Origin: an uncultured Eubacteriales bacterium
Lineage (GTDB): Bacteria; Bacillota; Clostridia; TANB77; UBA1234
Length of the DNA: 64,000 nt
Reading direction: 5' to 3'
Assembly (NCBI GenBank): GCA_964400015.1
Contig: CAYNRR010000001.1
Coordinates: 113,275 to 177,274, forward strand
Shown: piece by piece, positions 2,651 to 22,606 of the stretch
Layout of the letters: each line of letters starts with the position of its first letter
Numbering within the stretch: position 1 is the first letter of the stretch
Position numbers and translations under genes: made by a program
Notes under the pieces: generated by a model
Database searches by the model: none
The model's input: the letters and a program-made list of their open reading frames with translations, nothing else
Told to the model about the DNA's origin: nothing

Positions 2651-3955
2651 TTACTCTTCATCAAGGAATTTTGAAAGAAGTGTCGCAAATGGTACAGTTA
2701 TAACCATAGCTAACAACATTACTAAAATTCTTACAAATTCAATCAAGAAAATCTCAGACTGAATTATATAATCTCTTGTATAGCTCTTTACTACCAACAA
2801 CATATATTTAGGAAGTGTATTAGCAATCATAACAAAAGTTGCAACTAATGACATTTCTGAAACATATGATTTAACATCTTCACTTATAATCATAGCATCC
2901 TTAATTTTCGTTTTTTTAGCATCATACGATTCAACCGTTTTACAGGCTGTTAAAACAATTACAATAAACATAGTAAGTATAGTTACTGCAATGCTCAAAG
3001 CATGGAAATTAAATATATTTACCACTTCATTTGCAATTATGTTTGGTGTTACACCACTACTCATCAAGAATGTTTCAGTAGTTAATCCACTGAAGTTAAG
3101 CATATAATCAATAATTGCTTGAATTATAATACCCACAGCAGAAATGATAATTGTTGTAAATACTGCAACAAAACTTTTAGAATTAACACCTAATTTAATC
3201 GTACAAATCGCAATAGCATTTAGTATAATCGCAAATGCAACTAAAAGCCATAACGCAAAGCCTTGCAGAATCATAGGTCCAACAACTCCGAAAATTATAT
3301 CAACAGCTAAAAGTGCTGGAATAATTAGTTTAACAGAATTTTTACCTAAGAATACTATTACTATAAATAAAGTAATAACAGTTATTGCAATTAGTGTTGA
3401 AAACCTGTCAATATATGTATCAGGTTCTGGTGAAAAACCTACGACAGTATCATCGCCGATTTGCATTAAAGTTATATTAACAATGTCTCCAACCTTAACT
3501 TCAGGCATCGTGATATTTCCATAAACATCGTAAGTCAAGCAAGTCATGTATGTTAACTTCACACCCTCTAACTCGCCCTCGTCAATAATCTCAACTTCAC
3601 CATTTTGATAAAGTCCTCTTGCAAATTTAGCAGTAGATTGGTCTTGTGTGTATTGCATTTCTGGTTCTGAAATCGAAAGCACTTTAGCTTTAAACAACGG
3701 AACCTCCGAACCATTTTTATCTTCTTCAAGTTCTTCAATAAGTTGCTTAATATATTCAACTTTGTTAACTTCATTTTGGTCAAAACCATTCATCAACTCT
3801 TCATATTCTTCATACGTTTTCAAATAAACAGTTTCTCCACTTTCAACATCCTCTAGGAAACTAGTAGCAAAAGCTTTGCTTGGGAATACTATCAAGCAAA
3901 TCACTAAAGAACATAATATTGCAATAATTCCAAATCTCTTATTCAATAAAATCAA
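2651..3955 (-). CDS. YibE/F family membrane protein
   Basis: It has a signal peptide and a roughly 150-aa extracytoplasmic domain followed by many transmembrane helices (PALLAVDIIFGVVGPMILQGFALWLLVAFAII...), the typical YibE/F topology. The start may be TTG at 3955 or the TTG three codons later. Confidence 0.55.
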   Translation of the reverse strand: MILLNKRFGIIAILCSLVICLIVFPSKAFATSFLEDVESGETVYLKTYEEYEELMNGFDQNEVNKVEYIKQLIEELEEDKNGSEVPLFKAKVLSISEPEMQYTQDQSTAKFARGLYQNGEVEIIDEGELEGVKLTYMTCLTYDVYGNITMPEVKVGDIVNITLMQIGDDTVVGFSPEPDTYIDRFSTLIAITVITLFIVIVFLGKNSVKLIIPALLAVDIIFGVVGPMILQGFALWLLVAFAIILNAIAICTIKLGVNSKSFVAVFTTIIISAVGIIIQAIIDYMLNFSGLTTETFLMSSGVTPNIIANEVVNIFNFHALSIAVTILTMFIVIVLTACKTVESYDAKKTKIKDAMIISEDVKSYVSEMSLVATFVMIANTLPKYMLLVVKSYTRDYIIQSEIFLIEFVRILVMLLAMVITVPFATLLSKFLDEE

Positions 3956-4028
3956 CCTCTTTTATACATCAAATTTTACTTAAGTATAATATAAAAATTT
4001 TATTTAGTCCACAAACTAGTTATTTTTC

Positions 4029-4070
4029 ACATAAAAATCCCACTCCATTTTCCAGAGTGGGATTAAAAAT
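4029..4070 (-). terminator. Rho-independent terminator downstream of giant gene 1
   Basis: Perfect 10-bp stem AATCCCACTC / GAGTGGGATT with a 9-nt loop. A T-run follows on the minus strand. Confidence 0.6.
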
Positions 4071-4090
4071 ATTTTGTAAACTAAGTGACA

Positions 4091-4116
4091 CATTTAACGG
4101 ACGTCCCTAGTGTAGC
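4091..4116 (-). repeat. Copy 1 of the conserved 26-nt GC-rich motif ACATTTAACGGACGTCCCTAGTGT; it overlaps the stop codon of giant gene 1
   Basis: The 26-mer is identical to the copy at 15808 and contains the palindrome GGACGTCC. On the minus strand, CAC-TAG encodes the final His and the stop of the gene. Confidence 0.8.
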
Positions 4117-7100
4117 AGAAGGCCTTGGGTTGGTCCTATGAAGTTGGCTTGATACCACATTACTATTCCGTTATTGTTTTGGATGGATGTGTTTCCTGTG
4201 ATTGTTGGTGTTGATGTTTGGGTACTGTTTTCACCGATGATTACTAGTCCTTCGTTGTTTATGATACCTACTTCATTTCCTGTTATTTGTGTTTTTCCAT
4301 CTACTTTTAGTGTACTTTGTTTTGTGCTGTAATCTTTGTAAGTGTATGATGCGTAGTAATTTACGTTGCTGTCTACCATTGTTATTGTGTCTTTATTTTT
4401 TGATGTGATGTTTACTGGTTTTTCTTTTGAGTTTGCATCTGTTCTTACTGCTGTCCAATTGTCTTTGTGATAGTATATTCTGTATTTGTCGCCTTCTATT
4501 TCAGTTGCGATCTTGTATTGTTCTTCTGGCACTGTAATTGTTGCGCCATATGGATATGTAGCTTCTGATACTAGTTGTTCTCCATTTATTCCGTTGTCGT
4601 TGTAGAATCTTACTACATATTCTAAAACGTTCCATGTTGCGTATAGCGTCATGTCTTCGTTTCCTGTATATAAATCATTTGCTTTATATGTTTTTCCTGT
4701 ATTATCTTCTTTTGTATTCCATGAAGTGAAGTTATAACCAGCTTTTTCAAATCCATTTGCTCTTATTCTTATATCTGTATCTTTTATCTTTATTTGATAA
4801 TTTGTTTTACCTGTATAAGTTGTTGCATTTGGCTTGTAATGTATTTCATATGCTGTAATTGTTATTGCTGTAGTATTTCCTTCATAGTCTTTTACTTCAA
4901 CTGTGTAGTCACCTGATTTTGAAATATCAAATTTACCTGTTGCTGCTCCTGTTTCTGTATTCTTTTCTATTTCAATTGGGTTACCATTTACAATGATTTC
5001 GTTTACACCCGTTTCTTTGTCTTTACCTGTTACTGTTATTGTTGCTGTTCCATCTTCGTTATAATTTACTGAAGAATTTACTTCTTCTGGCGCTTCAAAG
5101 TCTCCTAATGAGATTGTTGCTTTATTTGATTCAACTGTATAATAATATGTTCCATTGCTTTGATATGCACTTCTTACAACTAGTTTGTACACGCCCTCGT
5201 CTGCATTTGTAAACGATGTTTTTGTATATGACAACGAATTTGCACCAGGTATTGCTACGCCGTCTTTGTACCATTGATATACTACATCATCTGCTATATA
5301 ACCATCTATTACTTCTACTTCAAAGTGTAATGTATCTCCACGTGCAATTTCGGCATCTGCTAATGTTGTTGTTATTTCAAATGGATAATACACTTTTGTT
5401 CTTTCTGCTGTATATTCTACATCTGGTGTTAATAAGTCTGCGACTGCTTTTGACTCTGTATAAATTATTGAATTTCTAGCCAAGTCAATAAAACGACTCT
5501 TACTTGAACTTTCACCTAATTCAGTTGACTTTAGGTACACAGCTTTCAAACTTCTACAATAGATAAATGCATGTCCTTGTATTTTATTTACACTTGCTGG
5601 TATTGTTATTTCTTCTATTGCTGTAGTTTCAAATGCACCCCAGTCTATTATTTCTAAAGTATCTGGTAATGTTACAGTTTTCAAGTATTGATTCTTTGCA
5701 AATGCAGATACACCAATGCTTACTGTACCATCTATTACTGTTGTTGTTGCATTTGTTCTTGCTGTTGGATATGCTATCAATTTATTTCCACCATACAAAG
5801 TATCATTTACAACTTTAAATCTTGTATTTTCCGCATCTACTGTAAATGATGTTAACATTGTGTCATAGAACGGATTATCATTAGCTATTGTCGTTACATT
5901 TTTAGGAATATTTACATTTCCTTTTAATGCACGCATTTTTGCAAATGCACTTGCACCGATTGCTTCCAATGAATCTGGAAGTTTCAAGCTTTCTACGTTA
6001 ATCAATCTATAGAATGTGTAATCGCCATATCTCGTTACGCCTTCTTCTAAATCTAGTTCTACTATAGTTTCACTATATTTATCAAACCATGGAATGTCTG
6101 TAAGAATCTTATCATCAATATATTCTAAAACAAACGATTTTGCTTTTCCTGTTCCACCAACTACAAGTTTATATCTTGTATTGTCTGTTATTCCATCGCC
6201 TTCCACGATTTTTATTCCTGCATATACATTGTCAACTCCTGCTGTTTTTGAGATATCCCAATATTCTATCCATGTATCATTAGTTTCTAAGTACATTTCT
6301 TTTATTGTTTCTGTTTCATTTTCAACTAAGTGATATCCTGATTGCAACGTTGTTGCTTTACCATCTAATGTTATCTTTTTATTTGTCGATACTAACTTAC
6401 CGTCATAAATATTCAAAGTTGCGTCATTATCTACTACTACATTTGCTCCTTCTATATATGGAACTTCTAGCGAAACTGTATTATCTTCTTTACCTAATGT
6501 TAATGTTCCTACATTATGAATCGTAGCTTCCGAATTATTTGAAATCACTTTACCATTTCTTAATTCAGCTTTACCATTTGCAAGCACTTCAATTGCATGG
6601 CCAGCATTAGAAGCTGATTCAATTCGAACATTACCATCAATTATCAATTCGCCTTCCACAGATATTGTTGAAGTTGTTGTTAATCCAATTTCATGTTTAA
6701 TGTAGCTCATATTTTCAGCAGAATTAGCAATTGTAAGTTTTCCTCTAACGACAATTCCGTCATTGCATACTAATTCTTTACCATTTAAATCAAGTGTATA
6801 ATCAGAATCTGCATAAATCACAATTTCTTTTATAACAGAATTTTCAAAATCACTAGAAATCATATTGTTTTCTAATAATTTAATTGTTGCTGTCGCTACA
6901 CCTTTACTGTTTAAAGTTTCAATTGCTTTGTACACATCAGAATAATATTCTGTTTTTCCATCACTAGTCACTTCTACTGTTATCTTTTCATTTGTTGTTA
7001 ATGTATACACTTCAGAAACATTTCCAGCATTATCTCTTACCCATGTATACCAAGTGCCATTTTCAGGAATCAATAATTCATTGCGTGTTTGCCATGTAGC

Positions 7101-17621: not shown

Positions 17622-19640
17622 TTAACAAACTTCTGAGCCTTCTTCAATATCTCCATCTATTGTTACAAATTTAACAACTTCATCCTCACCAGCTGCAAGA
17701 ACCATACCTTGTGATTGAATTCCTTTTAGTCTCGCTGGTTTTAAATTAGCAACAATAACTACTTTTTTATCGATTAAATCTTCTGGAGCATAATATTTTT
17801 GAAGTCCAGCAACAATTTGTCTTTGTTCGTTTCCTAACGACACTTGAAGTTTCAATAGTTTTTCAGAACCTTCAACTCGTTCTGCTTCAATAACTTTTGC
17901 AACTTTTAATTTTATTTTATCTAGATAATCAATTGAAATTAGTTCATCTGTATTATCATTTTCTTGAGATTTGTCTTTGTTGTCAGCCTTTGCCTTAGCA
18001 GCTTTTGCTGCCTTTTCAGCCTCTTTTGCAGCATCAATTTTAGCAAATTCTTCAAGAACAACTTTTTCATCTAAACGTGTAAATAATACTTCAACATTTT
18101 CTAGTTTAATTCCAGCTTGAGCCTCAACAAAATTCCAAGTAGCTTTTTCAAGGCCAAATATTTTTCTTACTTTTTCTGAAGAAGCTGGCATAAATGGTTC
18201 CATAATATTTGAAATATTTAAAATCAAAGTTGCACATGTATAAATTGTATTATTAAAAGCATTCATATCTTCTTTAAATTGAATCCAAGGCTTTTGTTCA
18301 TCATAATATTTATTAGCCTCATCGATCAATCTAATTGCTTTATCTGAAGCTTCTTTGAAATCAAGTCTTTCAATCGCAGCACCGATTTCACTGTAAGCCT
18401 TTTCAATTAACGCTTTAACATTAGCATCTAATTCACCATTAGGAATTTCAGAAATGCCTTTAAATTTCAAAGTTCTATTAACAAAATTTCCATATTTGTT
18501 AGTAATTTCATTATTATGTGTTGCAACATATTCAGAAAGAGCAAAATTTGTATCTTTTCTTTCTGGTCCGTTGTTTATCAAATGGAATCTAATTGTATCT
18601 GAATTTAACTTTTCAACAACATCTAAAGCACTAATAGCGTTGCCTTTACTCTTAGAAGCTTTTTCATTATTAAAATTCAAGTATTCAGAAGAAACAATTG
18701 TATCAGGCAATTTAAAGCCATCTTTAAGTGAAAGCAATAGTCCTGTAAAAATAATACTATGGAATACGATATTATCTTTTCCATGAACCATATATACTTT
18801 ATCTGCATTTTTCCAATAATCTTCCCAGTTAAGACCCTTGTCTTCGCAAGCTTTCATAGTTGCTGTAATATATCCCAAAACAGCCTCAATCCATACATAC
18901 AATTTTTTATCATCGTATCCATCAACAGGAACATCAACTCCCCAAGACAAATCTCTTGTGATAGCTCTATCCTTTAATCCTTCGCGAAGATATTTTTCAG
19001 TTTCGTTTTGAGCATTAACTCTCCATTTGCTTTTATTCTCAGCAACAAACTTTTCAATTTCAGGTTGCAACTTTGAAAGTGCAATATATAAATTTTTATT
19101 ATCCTTTTGAACCGTTGGATTTCCACATTCTCTACAAGTAGCATTTACCATGTCTTCTTCAGTTGGTGCATAGCCACAATCACAGCAATCGCATTTGGTT
19201 AAATTGCCACACTTAGGACAAACTATTTGCAATTCTCTGTCTGCCATAAACTTATGGCAATGTTCGCAATATGCTTGAGGCTCAACTTTTTCAAAAATCG
19301 CCCCATTATCATAAATCTTCTTAATAATTTCTTTAACCTTTTCTTTATGATAATCAGTATCAGTCAAAGTATATAAATCATACGAAAAATTTAATCCCTC
19401 AAAAGATTTTACGAATAGCTCATGATACTTATCGCAAATCTCTTTTGCAGTAATTCCCTCTAACTTAGCACGTTCTGTAATTGGTGTGCCGTGGCAATCC
19501 GAACCAGAAACATACATTACTTCGTCGCCTTTTGCTCTGTGATATCTTGCAAGTAAATCACCACCAATTAAGCCTGCAACATGCCCTAAATGTAATTTAT
19601 AATTTGCATATGGCCAAGCGCCACCTATCAATACTCTCAT
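17622..19640 (-). CDS. metG: Methionine--tRNA ligase with a C-terminal tRNA-binding domain
   Basis: HLGH and KSKGN class I motifs, zinc-knuckle cysteines, and a C-terminal EMAP/Trbp111-like domain. Confidence 0.85.
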   Translation of the reverse strand: MRVLIGGAWPYANYKLHLGHVAGLIGGDLLARYHRAKGDEVMYVSGSDCHGTPITERAKLEGITAKEICDKYHELFVKSFEGLNFSYDLYTLTDTDYHKEKVKEIIKKIYDNGAIFEKVEPQAYCEHCHKFMADRELQIVCPKCGNLTKCDCCDCGYAPTEEDMVNATCRECGNPTVQKDNKNLYIALSKLQPEIEKFVAENKSKWRVNAQNETEKYLREGLKDRAITRDLSWGVDVPVDGYDDKKLYVWIEAVLGYITATMKACEDKGLNWEDYWKNADKVYMVHGKDNIVFHSIIFTGLLLSLKDGFKLPDTIVSSEYLNFNNEKASKSKGNAISALDVVEKLNSDTIRFHLINNGPERKDTNFALSEYVATHNNEITNKYGNFVNRTLKFKGISEIPNGELDANVKALIEKAYSEIGAAIERLDFKEASDKAIRLIDEANKYYDEQKPWIQFKEDMNAFNNTIYTCATLILNISNIMEPFMPASSEKVRKIFGLEKATWNFVEAQAGIKLENVEVLFTRLDEKVVLEEFAKIDAAKEAEKAAKAAKAKADNKDKSQENDNTDELISIDYLDKIKLKVAKVIEAERVEGSEKLLKLQVSLGNEQRQIVAGLQKYYAPEDLIDKKVVIVANLKPARLKGIQSQGMVLAAGEDEVVKFVTIDGDIEEGSEVC

Positions 19641-19673
19641 GAATATAATCCCTCTTTCTATATATACTCTATT

Positions 19674-20063
19674 TTATTTTTTACTTATAACAACTGTAGC
19701 AATAGCGAAAGAATCATCATGTGATAAACTAATATCAACATCTTCATCTGCAATGCCTTTGCTTTCAACAATTTCTCTAAGTTTGCCATGAAAAGCTAAA
19801 TTAGGCTTTCCATTTTCATTTCTAACAACCTCAAAGTCACGCCAACTTACACCTTCCGATACATTTGGCGAAAGTGCTTTATAAGCTGCCTCTTTTGCAG
19901 CAAACCTCGCAGCATAACTTTGAAACTTAGACATTCGCCTAGACTCACAATAGCTGATTTCCTCGTCCGTATATATTCTTTTCAAAAAAGTGTCTCCAAA
20001 CTCTGTAATCGAATTTTTAATTCTATCCACGCTTACAATATCTGTTCCACAAAAAACTGCCAC
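19674..20063 (-). CDS. acpS: Holo-[acyl-carrier-protein] synthase
   Basis: GTDIVSVDRI and overall 4'-phosphopantetheinyl transferase similarity; about 125 aa. Confidence 0.7.
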   Translation of the reverse strand: MAVFCGTDIVSVDRIKNSITEFGDTFLKRIYTDEEISYCESRRMSKFQSYAARFAAKEAAYKALSPNVSEGVSWRDFEVVRNENGKPNLAFHGKLREIVESKGIADEDVDISLSHDDSFAIATVVISKK

Positions 20064-20118
20064 ACTTTCACCTCCTCATAACTAGTTAGAAATTATATCA
20101 TCAAAAGCACAATTTGTC

Positions 20119-20145
20119 CATTTTTTAAAATATATAGTTCATTTT
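20119..20145. repeat. Left copy of a 27-bp perfect direct repeat, CATTTTTTAAAATATATAGTTCATTTT, bracketing the toxIN unit
   Basis: Exact match to 20923..20949. Confidence 0.85.
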
Positions 20146-20173
20146 AAAATTTGTTCGCACCAGTCTTTTTACA

Positions 20174-20674
20174 TTATTTGTCATTTCTTTCTTTTATGTA
20201 TTCTAAGCACTTCTTTTCCAATATTTCAAAATTACATATATTAAATTTTTCTCTAGTCCTTTTATTCAGACCCAATTTATATACCATATTAGCTAATTTT
20301 TTTATTTTTTCCACATTTAAATTACAATATTTTAATTCTTTCATTAACAGGTTTCTATATTTCTCGTTTTCCTTTGAAAAGTCTTTTTGGCTTAAGTATT
20401 CTATTGGACATGGAAACATGAATGAAAATCTAAGAGAAGAAATTGCTTTTATTTGATTTGTCTTTTTATCTTTTTCTTTTATCAAAAATACTGTATGAGC
20501 TTTTTTGTTATATGAAGATACTGGAGCAAAATAATTAAAATTGTTAATTGTGAGAACTATTCCACAAAAAAATTTCTTATGTTTTTCATAATCTATATCT
20601 GGTATTTTATCATCTGCATTTTCTTTTAAATATTTTATATATTCACTATCTACTTCATAAAATTTTAATTTCAA
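20174..20674 (-). CDS. toxN: Type III toxin-antitoxin ToxN/AbiQ-family endoribonuclease toxin
   Basis: (M/L)KLKFYEVDSEYIKYLKE...FCGIVLTINNFNYFAPVSSYNKKAH aligns closely with the ToxN/AbiQ N-terminus. TTG start with an AGGAAG RBS. Confidence 0.8.
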   Translation of the reverse strand: MKLKFYEVDSEYIKYLKENADDKIPDIDYEKHKKFFCGIVLTINNFNYFAPVSSYNKKAHTVFLIKEKDKKTNQIKAISSLRFSFMFPCPIEYLSQKDFSKENEKYRNLLMKELKYCNLNVEKIKKLANMVYKLGLNKRTREKFNICNFEILEKKCLEYIKERNDK

Positions 20675-20687
20675 ATCTAACTTCCTT

Positions 20688-20730
20688 TCAAAAATAAAAA
20701 TAGGGAGCTAAAACATACGTTTTAACCCCC
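20688..20730 (-). terminator. Hairpin plus T-run between the ToxI-like repeats and toxN (attenuator-like)
   Basis: On the minus strand, GGGGGTTAAAAC-gtat-GTTTTAGCTCCC is followed by TATTTTTATTTTTG. Confidence 0.45.
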
Positions 20731-20745
20731 ATTAAATTACGCATT

Positions 20746-20868
20746 TTGTTGTGAGCTGCGAAACACTCGAATATATCGCTCGCACTTATTATGGGCTGCG
20801 AAACACCCAAATATATAGCTCGCCATTTATTATGAGTAGCGAAACACTCGGATTACTTTAAAGTATCC
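20746..20868 (-). ncRNA. toxI: ToxI-like antitoxin RNA: about 2.7 tandem 41-nt repeats
   Basis: Tandem imperfect repeats (plus strand ..GCTGCGAAACAC(T/C)C.AATATATCGCTCGC.. with period 41) lie immediately upstream of toxN. This is the canonical type III toxin-antitoxin arrangement. Confidence 0.65.
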
Positions 20869-20883
20869 TTTATTAGTATACTA

Positions 20884-20913
20884 ATTATACTATTTATATA
20901 TGCAAATTGTCAA
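20884..20913 (-). promoter_or_regulatory. Sigma-A-type promoter driving toxI-toxN
   Basis: On the minus strand: TTGACA, an 18-nt spacer, then TATAAT. Confidence 0.5.
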
Positions 20914-20922
20914 TCAAACCAG

Positions 20923-20949
20923 CATTTTTTAAAATATATAGTTCATTTT
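20923..20949. repeat. Right copy of the 27-bp direct repeat bracketing the toxIN unit
   Basis: Exact match to 20119..20145. Confidence 0.85.
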
Positions 20950-20988
20950 TATACTTTTACGCATATACATATTTAATGGAGGTGCCAT

Positions 20989-21144
20989 ATGAATAATGAA
21001 ATGATTTACACTATGTTTTTGAATAGCATTAGAAATATGAGTGATGAAGAATTAAAGAAGACTCTTGAAAAAACCAAAAGTATTTTGAATGAAAATGATT
21101 ACAACAAGTTATTAGAACTTATCCGAAAAGAAAGGAACATATAG
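20989..21144 (+). CDS. Small hypothetical protein (51 aa)
   Basis: GGAGGTG RBS then ATG. The product is MNNEMIYTMFLNSIRNMSDEELKK... It is below the length cutoff of the ORF track. Confidence 0.35.
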   Translation: MNNEMIYTMFLNSIRNMSDEELKKTLEKTKSILNENDYNKLLELIRKERNI

Positions 21145-21160
21145 AAACGGAGATGGGATT

Positions 21161-21484
21161 ATGGAAGAAACGCCAGATATGTCAAAAATACTTGAATTAG
21201 TTAACATTCTTAAAAATGCTGATTCATCTAGCAATAATCAAGAAAATGGCAAGAATAATGTGCCTAACAATTTTGAAATGCCTGACGTTGAAACTATAAT
21301 GAAAATCAATCAAATTATAAAAGCTATGAATTCTAGTTCAAATACTGCAAGTGCAAACTTGTTATATTCCCTCAAGCCATTTTTGCGAAAAACAAAGCAA
21401 GACAAAATTGATCAATATGTAAATATGCTCAAGCTTTCTTCTGTAATCTCTGAATTTAACAAAAACGATAAGAATTTATTTTAG
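21161..21484 (+). CDS. Hypothetical protein (107 aa)
   Basis: ORF with a Ser/Asn-rich low-complexity region. No recognisable domain. Confidence 0.4.
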   Translation: MEETPDMSKILELVNILKNADSSSNNQENGKNNVPNNFEMPDVETIMKINQIIKAMNSSSNTASANLLYSLKPFLRKTKQDKIDQYVNMLKLSSVISEFNKNDKNLF

Positions 21485-21493
21485 GGTGATTGT

Positions 21494-21634
21494 ATGGAAT
21501 TACTTTTAAAAAATTTAAAACTAGAAGAGAATTTTGATAATTACCTAATAGCAATTTTACTGATGCTATTTTTAAATGAGGGGGGTGAAGACACGGCAAT
21601 TGTGATAATATTATTTTTACTTCTATTATCATAA
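21494..21634 (+). CDS. Small hypothetical hydrophobic peptide (46 aa)
   Basis: ATG follows AGGGTGA. Sequence MELLLKNLKLEENFDNYLIAILLMLFLNEGGEDTAIVIILFLLLLS. Confidence 0.2.
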   Translation: MELLLKNLKLEENFDNYLIAILLMLFLNEGGEDTAIVIILFLLLLS

Positions 21635-21667: not shown

Positions 21668-22159
21668 TTAGCAATTTAAAATTTTAGCAGATTCAATATA
21701 CCCTGGAAACACATCACTTTTCAGGTTCATTCCTGCCGTATTAAAAACATAATCATGCTCATCTAAAATGTTGTATAACATTGTATTTGAGTTATAAACT
21801 TCGTAACAATTTATAATTCTAAGCTCTGTAAAATTATCAGTAAGGTTTTCCAATAGATATGTATTTATTTCTTTTATAAACTCCATTGTGCCTTGTACAA
21901 CAATGTTTACAGGATTTTTTTCTTTCAATTCTAAAACAACCTCGTCATTAAACCATTCGACTTCATCTATTCCCTTTTCATTTTCAAAATGCAAATTTAA
22001 TCTTTTAACTAATCCTTTCATTCCATTTTCAAGTTTGTCTTGAGATATAACTAGCACTTTATTTTTATTTTTTAATTCCTCACGCACGTATGGCAAAAGA
22101 GCTGCAAACAGGTGCCATTCACTTACGTAAAAATTACAAGCCTTTATTATTTTATACAT
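21668..22159 (-). CDS. Hypothetical protein (163 aa)
   Basis: GGAGG RBS before MYKIIKACNFYVSEWHLF... No confident family assignment. Confidence 0.4.
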   Translation of the reverse strand: MYKIIKACNFYVSEWHLFAALLPYVREELKNKNKVLVISQDKLENGMKGLVKRLNLHFENEKGIDEVEWFNDEVVLELKEKNPVNIVVQGTMEFIKEINTYLLENLTDNFTELRIINCYEVYNSNTMLYNILDEHDYVFNTAGMNLKSDVFPGYIESAKILNC

Positions 22160-22606
22160 TGTTTTTCCTCCTTTGTTATCTTGTATTTTGATATTACCAT
22201 TTTTTACCAGTTGTGTCAATAAAATATTTCCATTTTTTGGTATTTTTATAAAACATACGGAAATACTTTATCTGGAGGTGTTGATTTTGAAAAAATTCAT
22301 ATTACTATTTGTTTATTGGTGGGCAATAATTTTTCCTTCGTTTGCATTTAATGAACAATTTAATTATTCCGAATCACAAGATATTGAATTTCATTTTAAG
22401 ATAGTCGACTGCATTCAAGAACATTTTCAAATGCCTACATCCCTACATTTTTCGTCATAACTCTACTTAAAATATCTACTTGTAAATAAAATTCATCTAT
22501 GATATATTCTTTATGGGAGTAAATCTCCTTATTTTTTGCCTTCTGCAAATACCATATAGACAGGCAAATTTTATAAAATATAAATATAGAAAAAGGTGTG
22601 ATATAA

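Follow-up and report, generated by a model that had tools for sequence, protein, structure and literature searches.

In the characterized members of the ToxN family of type III toxin-antitoxin (TA) systems, a repeat-containing precursor RNA is processed into single units, the units and ToxN assemble into a head-to-tail cyclic complex, and ToxN is released upon phage infection (PMC3401426, PMC5086642, PMC8860590). The antitoxin ToxI of Pectobacterium atrosepticum forms an H-type pseudoknot bearing single-stranded tails (PMC5086642), and the catalytic residues of ToxN from P. atrosepticum and Escherichia coli are Lys33, Thr52, Ser53, and Lys55 (PMC8860590). A terminator placed after the repeats and before the toxin gene is a stated criterion for type III systems (PMC3401426). 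In a published set of 67 toxIN loci, repeats are 31 to 62 nucleotides (nt) long (mean 38.1), are present in 1.9 to 5.6 copies (mean 2.8), and accompany toxins with a mean length of 168 amino acids (aa) (Blower et al., PMC3401426, Table 2). Here, we describe a locus of this kind in an uncultured Eubacteriales bacterium. It lies in a 64,000-nt stretch of contig CAYNRR010000001.1 (positions 113,275 to 177,274), hereafter referred to as the window, whose numbering is used throughout. The locus is very probably a canonical and apparently intact ToxIN/AbiQ-family type III TA (abortive infection) module, carried on a 777–base pair (bp) promoter-to-stop cassette that was inserted into the spacer between orf51, a small open reading frame (ORF), and acpS. 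Repeats, terminator, and toxin, by which type III loci have been identified in published work, are all present, and the values for the window (three units of 39 to 41 nt and a toxin of 166 aa) fall in the middle of the published distributions.

The toxin gene and the antitoxin RNA

The toxN gene (20174..20674, minus strand) is a 166-aa ORF with a TTG start, preceded by a ribosome-binding site (RBS), AAGGAAG, at 20687..20681. Its product matched the Pfam family ToxN_toxin (PF13958) over profile positions 1 to 159 of 159, with an E value of 3.5e-33 and a score of 115.5 bits (cutoff, 25), and the PADLOC AbiQ model with an E value of 9.3e-31. Solved structures of ToxN (2xd0, 1.1e-15; 7d8o, 1.7e-14; 4ato, 3e-14) and AbiQ (4glk, 9e-9) were matched over the full length. 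Plasmid-encoded homologues are 41 to 47% identical to the window protein and are already annotated as “type III toxin-antitoxin system ToxN/AbiQ family toxin”; relatives also occur in a few phage records, and no NCBIfam model matched the protein. As judged from pairwise alignment only, K34, S53, and S54 of the window ToxN correspond to the catalytic Lys33, Thr52, and Ser53. At the level of sequence, these matches confirm toxN as a full-length member of the ToxN/AbiQ endoribonuclease family.

The best site found by the promoter scan in this region, the toxIN promoter (20884..20913, minus strand), consists of a −35 element TTGACA (20913..20908), an 18-nt spacer, and a −10 element TATAAT (20889..20884) and agrees with the sigma-70 consensus at 12 of 12 positions. 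It is followed by a 5′ leader hairpin, GGAUAC-UUUAAA-GUAAUCC [20850..20868, minus strand; minimum free energy (MFE) of −4.6 kcal/mol, z = −2.5], which overlaps repeat unit 1 by 4 nt at the start of that unit. The hairpin overlaps the AUUC tail of that unit and may act as a 5′ stabilizer or mark the first processing site. Its sequence varies by subclade while the palindrome is kept: GGAUAC...GUAAUCC is present in the window and in copies from integrative and conjugative elements (ICEs), and a GAAUAG/CUAUUC palindrome, read by eye, occupies this position in most copies from metagenome-assembled genomes (MAGs; L017 to L043).

Three tandem ToxI-like units occupy positions 20734..20853 (minus strand), upstream of toxN. 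Tandem Repeats Finder reported a period of 40 with 2.4 copies (20752..20847), and a separate repeat search found three copies spaced by 40 and 41 nt. When the register of the RNA fold is used, the units (20853..20813, 20812..20773, and 20772..20734) are 41, 40, and 39 nt long, and all three are complete. An intrinsic terminator or attenuator (20691..20730, minus strand), formed by a hairpin with a 12-bp stem (20730..20703) and a T-run, separates the array from toxN. The hairpin has an MFE of −16.6 kcal/mol (z = −5.05), none of 200 shuffled sequences folded as well, and related loci likewise carry a hairpin at this position. It was the single terminator detected within 19600..21500. No terminator was found 3′ of toxN in that scan, so read-through into acpS is possible; ICE copies do have a terminator there. 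At L019 (3800-3990), similarly at L023 and L026, and at L048 (1436-1558), ~100 to 130 nt of additional sequence that appears structured separates the toxI terminator from toxN. This stretch (e.g., ...GGTTAAGTTACCTTGGGCTGTGCGGTTTGCAAAGCAAACCTGTACATGTGGCGAAGCCAC...) is conserved between L019 and L048 and had no Rfam match at E values up to 0.1.

Related loci were collected by scanning one genome per species, which yielded 37 loci, all from MAGs of uncultured gut Clostridia; ICE copies and a sister lineage were added through exact-protein matches. The upstream regions of 32 loci, including the window, share one layout: nearly all contain TTGACA and TATAAT, a leader palindrome, three units of 37 to 44 nt, a GGGGG...CCCC terminator, and an RBS. 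Three units each were counted in 30 of the 31 related loci; two are present in L048, and none were detected in L051. The gut Clostridia toxIN clade (L003 to L007 and L017 to L055) thus has the same promoter, 5′ hairpin, three units, terminator, and RBS as the window, with ToxN proteins that are 73 to 89% identical.

Along each unit, the elements of an H-type pseudoknot follow one another in the order stem A 5′, stem B 5′, stem A 3′, A-rich linker, and stem B 3′. In the window, stem A 5′ is GAGU or GGGU, stem B 5′ is UUCGC, stem A 3′ is ACUC or GCCC, and stem B 3′ is GCGAG or GCG. Stem A appears as GAGU...ACUC, as GGGU...GCCC in window unit 2, and as GAGG...CCUC or GAGC...GCUC in other loci; stem B appears as UUCGC...GCGAA and elsewhere as UUCAC...GUGAA, AUGCU...AGCAU, AGGUU...AACCU, or ACGCU...AGCGU. 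To quantify covariation, 84 distinct units from 31 related loci were aligned with MAFFT, with no fitting of the alignment to any structure. Standard pairs are formed in 91.3% of the cells, and seven of the nine pairs have changed on both sides. None of 500 shuffles reached the observed pairing or covariation, and sliding of the 3′ partners left 28 to 60% of the cells paired. In an alignment-free arm swap, a unit’s own stem B arm had an exact Watson-Crick complement downstream in 56 of the 84 units, compared to 1.2% for arms taken from other units. These results support the folding of each repeat unit as a ToxI-like H-type pseudoknot, a proposal derived from comparison of related sequences and concerning stems A and B; crystal structures of the family also contain tertiary triplexes.

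Because the partner of stem B 5′ is located beyond the A-rich linker, the linker itself is enclosed by the pseudoknot and separates stem A 3′ from stem B 3′. A processing site within the linker (AA/AU) was considered and rejected for this reason. The position of the linker, together with the analogy to ToxI, makes it more likely that ToxN would cut between units, at ...GAUAU/AUUCGAG..., i.e., after stem B 3′ of one unit and before stem A 5′ of the following one.

Units of one array are nonequivalent in many relatives. The third and sometimes the second unit carries a wholly different stem B sequence with matching compensatory changes (AAGGUUA/UAACCU, AAUGCU/AGCAU, and AACGCU/AGCGU), as in the third units of L018 to L032, L036, L039, and L043. 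The window differs from these clade members in that UUCGC is kept in all three units.

The preliminary description of this stretch had proposed a type III TA layout of the ToxIN/AbiQ kind: a ToxN/AbiQ-family endoribonuclease at 20674..20174, to be given up if no ToxN-family profile matched; a TTGACA, 18-nt spacer, TATAAT promoter ahead of it; ~2.7 tandem 41-nt repeats; and a hairpin with a T-run between repeats and toxN. It had also suggested that the repeats be examined for a ToxI-like pseudoknot. The toxin (PF13958, PADLOC AbiQ, and full-length matches to ToxN and AbiQ chains), the promoter, the hairpin, the covarying pseudoknot, and the layout as a whole are all borne out by the data above. 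The tandem array also stands; its copy number does not, as three complete units are seen in the structural register. The remark that 41 nt exceeds the lengths of ToxI (36 nt) and AntiQ (35 nt) is correct, but the length is not distinctive, being within the published range and normal for the clade.

A model for the action of the module can be outlined on these grounds. The strong promoter would act constitutively and yield a short leader with its 5′ hairpin, followed by the three ~40-nt ToxI-like repeats. Most transcripts would stop at the terminator hairpin, and read-through would give the toxN mRNA, so that RNA antitoxin is made in excess of toxin. As in the ToxIN systems of Pectobacterium, Bacillus, and E. 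coli, ToxN would cut the repeat precursor into single units, and each unit, a pseudoknot with single-stranded tails, would bind ToxN head to tail in a closed, inactive RNA-protein ring. Phage infection that halts host transcription or hastens RNA turnover would leave the labile RNA unreplenished, and the freed ToxN would then cleave cellular and phage RNAs, aborting the infection. For the window module, we infer processing, complex formation, toxicity, and the phage phenotype by analogy with the characterized systems.

The cassette and the empty site

The module is bracketed by a 27-bp direct repeat whose two copies, on the acpS side (20119..20145, abutting the acpS −35 element) and on the orf51 side (20923..20949), are identical at 27 of 27 positions. 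These are the only two matches to the 27-mer in the window even when three mismatches are allowed, and no matches were obtained in 100 shuffles. The longest flank-to-flank match in shuffled flanks was 9 nt on average and 14 nt at most. Ungapped extension of the repeat reaches 41 nt at 88% identity; the added part (9 of 14 further matches) is too weak to claim, as is the likeness of the two −35 regions (GACAATTTG compared to GACAAATTG). Between the copies lies the 777-nt cassette (20146..20922), with junction fillers of 4 and 28 nt at its ends. The 28-nt filler (20146..20173), which extends from the toxN stop codon to the acpS-side copy, is homologous neither to other toxIN loci nor to the empty site described below.

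Syntenic relatives found through an AcpS search share the gene order murA-mgtC-orf183-orf107-orf51/acpS-metG-tatD. In three of them (L011 to L013), orf51 and acpS are only 132 nt apart. Their BLASTN homology to the window ends at 20925 and resumes at 20120, with 10 nt of their own sequence in between, so the window carries 804 extra nucleotides, which correspond to the 777-nt cassette and a second copy of the 27-nt spacer segment. The homologue of this segment in L011, GAAAAGTGAACAAGAATGTGTTGTAAAAAAATG, is single-copy, and the orf51-side copy in the window aligns with the single-copy spacer of the empty-site relatives.

The extent of the cassette is seen from toxIN loci in unrelated contexts. 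About 35 of them align with the window only from 20918/20914 to 20193/20175, a segment that begins shortly before the −35 element and closes with the stop codon, which is also the extent of DNA homology between the window and the gut Clostridia clade. Copies of that clade lie in other contexts, for example, between trbL and traC/virB4-like genes, and lack the flanking direct repeats that the window has. The closest ToxN relatives outside the acpS site, with 86 to 89% aa identity, are found within clusters of conjugative elements (L003 to L006:4756-5498; L054:1429-2171; L055:531-1272). These clusters encode MobL, VirD4/TraG, TrbL, TraC-like and VirB4-like proteins, and a large serine recombinase, with an Apyc1-like metallo-β-lactamase-fold gene nearby. 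In another relative, L025, a second, divergent ToxN-like coding region (2882-3348), with 33 to 35% identity and split into two pieces, precedes the main toxN by ~650 nt, which points to type III modules that are tandem or decayed in this MAG.

Direct repeats at the flanks exceeded chance level in the window (27 nt) and L001 (18 nt) only; they were absent from all 26 other toxIN loci, and the 18-nt core occurred in none of 14 other loci compared. This distribution indicates that the repeat is derived from the target and specific to the event rather than a feature of a mobile element. No transposase or integrase gene was found between the repeats, where no ORF other than toxN matched a family, and no terminal inverted repeats were found at the cassette. 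Among the marks of transposons, insertion sequences, and integrative elements, the flanking direct repeat is the only one present. As 27 bp is much longer than classical transposition target duplications, we use “target duplication” as a descriptive term only.

Overall, comparison of the sequences supports the insertion of a bare promoter-to-stop unit into the orf51-acpS spacer, with duplication of at least 27 bp of native spacer. The cassette would have entered a short spacer between the divergent promoters of orf51 and acpS, leaving one copy of the segment on each side, and we infer that both copies persist since each keeps the promoter-upstream DNA of one flanking divergent gene. The preliminary description had already noted the perfect 27-bp repeat and proposed insertion of a cassette with target duplication between acpS and a cluster of small ORFs; both points hold, the repeat being far beyond chance and the breakpoints of homology to the empty site coinciding with its copies. 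An empty site with a single copy, which it had suggested looking for, exists in L011 to L013, where one homologous copy of the segment is present and toxIN is not. No genome with the 27-mer twice and without toxIN, an arrangement that it had regarded as contradicting the insertion, was found.

The order toxIN-acpS-metG is common to L001, L002, L056, and L057, which represent a sister lineage. Nucleotide identity between the L001 lineage and the window is ~87% overall and similar across metG, acpS, the flanks, and the cassette. Given the shared order and this even identity, the simplest reading of the alignments is one insertion in an ancestor common to both lineages. The acpS-side repeat copy together with the acpS −35 element is identical at 36 of 36 positions between the window and L001. 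A 25-mer spanning the repeat and this −35 element gave no matches in a metagenome scan. The possibility that L001 imported an acpS-toxIN segment by recombination, raised by aa identities of 99% for MetG and 88% for AcpS, was rejected, as nucleotide identity is ~85 to 95% across metG, acpS, and toxIN; the high MetG value is due to stronger purifying selection on this protein. Mosaic recombination was likewise rejected as a source of the low identity between the window and L001 in the 3′ third of toxN, since this part is the most divergent one in every pairwise comparison of relatives.

Several observations weigh against parts of this picture. The junction fillers of the window and L001 are wholly different, that of L001 being 52 nt long and unalignable, and the orf51-side repeat copy of L001 shares only the 18-nt core, so a single ancestral event is parsimonious but unproven. 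In most segments, the window toxIN is about as distant from the L001 copy as from ICE copies, which, together with the unalignable fillers, leaves room for independent insertions; the window and L001 may have received their cassettes separately at the same spot. The L001 contig ends 28 nt past its orf51-side repeat copy, and loss of orf51 adjacency there is thus not established. The searches yielded neither an empty site in a genome of the same species nor any AcpS homologue with an identity between 88 and 100%, and exact-protein look-ups found no record of the window ToxN, AcpS, orf51, or P0001 proteins. On the RNA side, nested folds of single units are no more stable than those of shuffled sequences (MFE, z ~0), a measure uninformative for a pseudoknot, and the case for the fold is therefore made by covariation. 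No ToxI or other credible Rfam family matched the repeats, whether in the region at E values up to 10, in the whole window at the gathering threshold, or in three related loci. In the protein, the position of Lys55 is taken by Asn56, with Lys57 adjacent, in a pairwise alignment in which the Bacillus thuringiensis pattern, TSRNDK, is similar. Last, toxicity, antitoxicity, processing, and phage resistance are all ascribed to the module from its family membership.

Flanking genes, other cargo, and alternative readings

Downstream of the cassette, acpS (19674..20063, minus strand; PF01648) encodes holo-ACP synthase. Its promoter, TGGACA-17 nt-(TG)TATAAT (20092..20120, minus strand), lies outside the cassette, agrees with the consensus at 11 of 12 positions, has an extended −10 element, and is conserved in L008, L011, and L014. 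On the other side, orf51 (20989..21144, plus strand) is a conserved small ORF that diverges from the insertion site and has orthologues with 86 to 92% identity in L008 and L011 to L014. The flanking small ORFs orf51, orf107, and a 183-aa ORF [20989-21484 (+) and 21668-22219 (−)] are present in every syntenic relative with 58 to 92% identity; none had a significant Pfam match, only sub-threshold ones to Ribosomal_L29 and MEDS. ARAGORN found no tRNA gene, and no Rfam family passed the gathering threshold, anywhere in the window. A T-box often precedes metG in Firmicutes; none was found before metG here.

The same spacer holds other cargo in sister lineages. In L008, whose AcpS is 79% identical, it contains a 1.1–kilobase (kb) insert (3799-4939) with a gene (3895-4902) for a DUF1016_N and YhcG_C PDDEXK nuclease (Pfam, 5.9e-41 and 4.2e-54), and the flank breakpoints fall inside segments homologous to the window 27-bp repeat (window positions 20932 and 20125). 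In L014, a 548-nt insert (4391-4938) has no called gene; a short ORF fragment lies upstream. An ORF at 4741-4809 encodes a 22-aa hydrophobic peptide, MRDLLKMLALIIVYLVVNDKKD, and is followed by a hairpin and a T-run. A 12-nt motif, AAATGCGTGATT, occurs twice, 126 nt apart, and coincides in part with the start of the ORF; the third ToxI unit of the window ends in a similar sequence, AAAATGCGTAATT. This insert could be a type I TA–like module or a toxIN remnant. No flanking direct repeats were found around the L008 or L014 inserts. The spacer is a small, concrete example of a defense/TA “hot spot” without recognizable mobility genes.

Four other readings of the repeat or of the module were weighed. 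The one that survives best, although it remains tentative, is that the duplication was a by-product of illegitimate or replication-based insertion (template switching or microhomology repair) and that the identity of the copies reflects selection or gene conversion rather than recency, each copy supplying promoter-upstream DNA: UP-like on the acpS side and a −35 region on the orf51 side. The insertion appears old, being shared with L001 at ~87% nucleotide identity, yet the window copies are fully identical; the acpS-side copy abuts the TGGACA −35 element and, with it, is unchanged between the window and L001. A promoter-like TTTAAA-16 nt-TATACT (20928..20955) faces orf51 across the orf51-side copy, and in L001, where the flank past that copy is not clearly orf51, the copy has decayed to the 18-nt core. 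However, promoter scans give consensus matches only, with 18 sites found compared to 11.7 expected in AT-rich DNA, and the early end of the L001 contig weakens the argument from orf51. By a rough estimate, 54 nt would stay unchanged at a lineage divergence of ~5% with a probability (P) of ~0.07, so selection is not strictly required.

A second reading concerns function. The module could mainly be an addiction or stabilization element derived from a conjugative element, or a decaying relic, rather than an active phage defense. Its closest relatives indeed lie in conjugation clusters between trbL and traC/virB4-like genes, type III systems can stabilize plasmids (PMC5086642), and some relatives are truncated (L038, 95 aa) or represented by partial matches (L044 to L053). 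We consider this reading unlikely, as the window ORF is full length, the promoter, three units, terminator, and RBS are intact and conserved compared to relatives, and the module has been kept at this chromosomal site in two lineages that are ~13% diverged. In addition, both ToxIN and AbiQ were discovered through abortive infection phenotypes (PMC3401426, PMC5086642).

It is still more doubtful that the 27-bp repeat is an att-like core through which the cassette, or a larger element since reduced, entered by site-specific recombination with a circular donor, perhaps remaining excisable or mobilizable in trans. Direct repeats of ~27 bp are typical of attL/attR cores rather than of transposition duplications, the closest ToxN relatives reside in recombinase-bearing conjugative elements (L003 to L006 and L054 to L055), and unrelated cargo occupies the same spacer in L008 and L014. 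The fillers of the window and L001 differ even though the junction positions coincide, as independent site-specific events would give. Against this, there is no integrase nearby and no ICE-derived sequence beyond the promoter-to-stop unit, and the repeat is homologous to the native spacer, not to the flanks of toxIN donors, with its 18-nt core absent from the 14 loci compared. Neither the 26 other toxIN loci nor the other cargos at the spacer have flanking repeats. The ICE relatives carry a serine-type recombinase (PF07508). Serine recombinases are not known to leave long repeats.

We regard as very improbable the related proposal that the orf51-acpS spacer is a dedicated integration hot spot of this Clostridia lineage, where minimal promoter-to-stop defense/TA cassettes would be captured by an undescribed in-trans mechanism that copies ~27 bp of target and from which toxIN may still be excisable through the repeats. 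The cargo in question would be toxIN in the window, the DUF1016/YhcG nuclease in L008, and the small-peptide module in L014. A chance match is effectively refuted: the region is very AT-rich and 8- to 12-nt repeats are common in it, but the shuffles gave neither a match to the 27-mer with three mismatches nor a flank-to-flank match above 14 nt, the two copies coincide with the empty-site homology breakpoints, and the 18-nt core is duplicated at the same two positions in L001.

Comparison with characterized type III systems

The window module can now be set beside the characterized systems. ToxIN of P. atrosepticum plasmid pECA1039 and of E. coli belongs to the same toxin fold family and has the same order of promoter, tandem repeats, terminator, and toxin as the window. 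As read from the alignment, these ToxN proteins are ~25 to 30% identical to that of the window, where K34, S53, and S54 align with Lys33, Thr52, and Ser53 and where Asn56, with Lys57 adjacent, aligns with Lys55. P. atrosepticum ToxI, AGGUGAUUUGCUACCUUUAAG... (PMC5772629), has its elements in the same order as the window units: GGUG compared to GAGUG, UUUGC to UUUCGC, and ACC to ACUC, followed by an A/U-rich loop, the 3′ arm of stem 2, and a single-stranded AUUC tail. It comprises 5.5 units of 36 nt, whereas the window has three of 39 to 41 nt, the extra length being in the A-rich linker. The sequence between units is (G/A)AUAU-AUUC in the window and GAA-AUUC in P. atrosepticum, so the recognition sequence would differ if the cut is analogous. 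The 84 units obtained through relatives support a ToxI-like pseudoknot in which the A-rich linker is longer and the processing sequence has probably shifted. They could also serve as the basis of an Rfam-type model, as these antitoxins are at present detected by none. P. atrosepticum ToxIN is plasmid-borne, whereas the window module is chromosomal.

ToxIN of B. thuringiensis pAW63 and AbiQ/antiQ of Lactococcus lactis pSRQ900 are Firmicute members of the window ToxN family, with ~2.8 to 2.9 repeats and a TS-x-N-x-K active-site stretch that is like SSYNKK of the window. Their repeats are 34 to 35 nt long compared to 39 to 41 nt in the window. Both systems are plasmid-borne and have demonstrated abortive infection phenotypes, in contrast to the window module, which is chromosomal and known from sequence.

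The CptIN (Eubacterium rectale) and TenpIN systems follow the same logic as the window locus, with a repeat RNA antitoxin, a terminator, and an endoribonuclease toxin. Their repeat lengths, 40 to 48 and 39 to 57 nt, overlap the 41 nt observed here (PMC3401426). However, the profile and the structures matched by the window protein are those of ToxN/AbiQ and not of the CptIN or TenpIN families, and the CptI pseudoknot and heterotetrameric complex differ from those of ToxI (PMC5086642).

The module type is well known, and its 41-nt period, which is the norm for the clade, adds no novelty; what is new, and only mildly so, is the scar of the insertion and the fact that other cargo uses the same spacer. 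The scar, when compared to the empty site, indicates mobility of a toxIN module as a bare ~0.75-kb promoter-to-stop unit between conjugative elements and a chromosomal spacer. With this locus, a chromosomal ToxIN module that appears intact is recorded for an uncultured, low-GC lineage of gut Clostridia, which is of modest practical value, and the current understanding of type III systems is left unchallenged.

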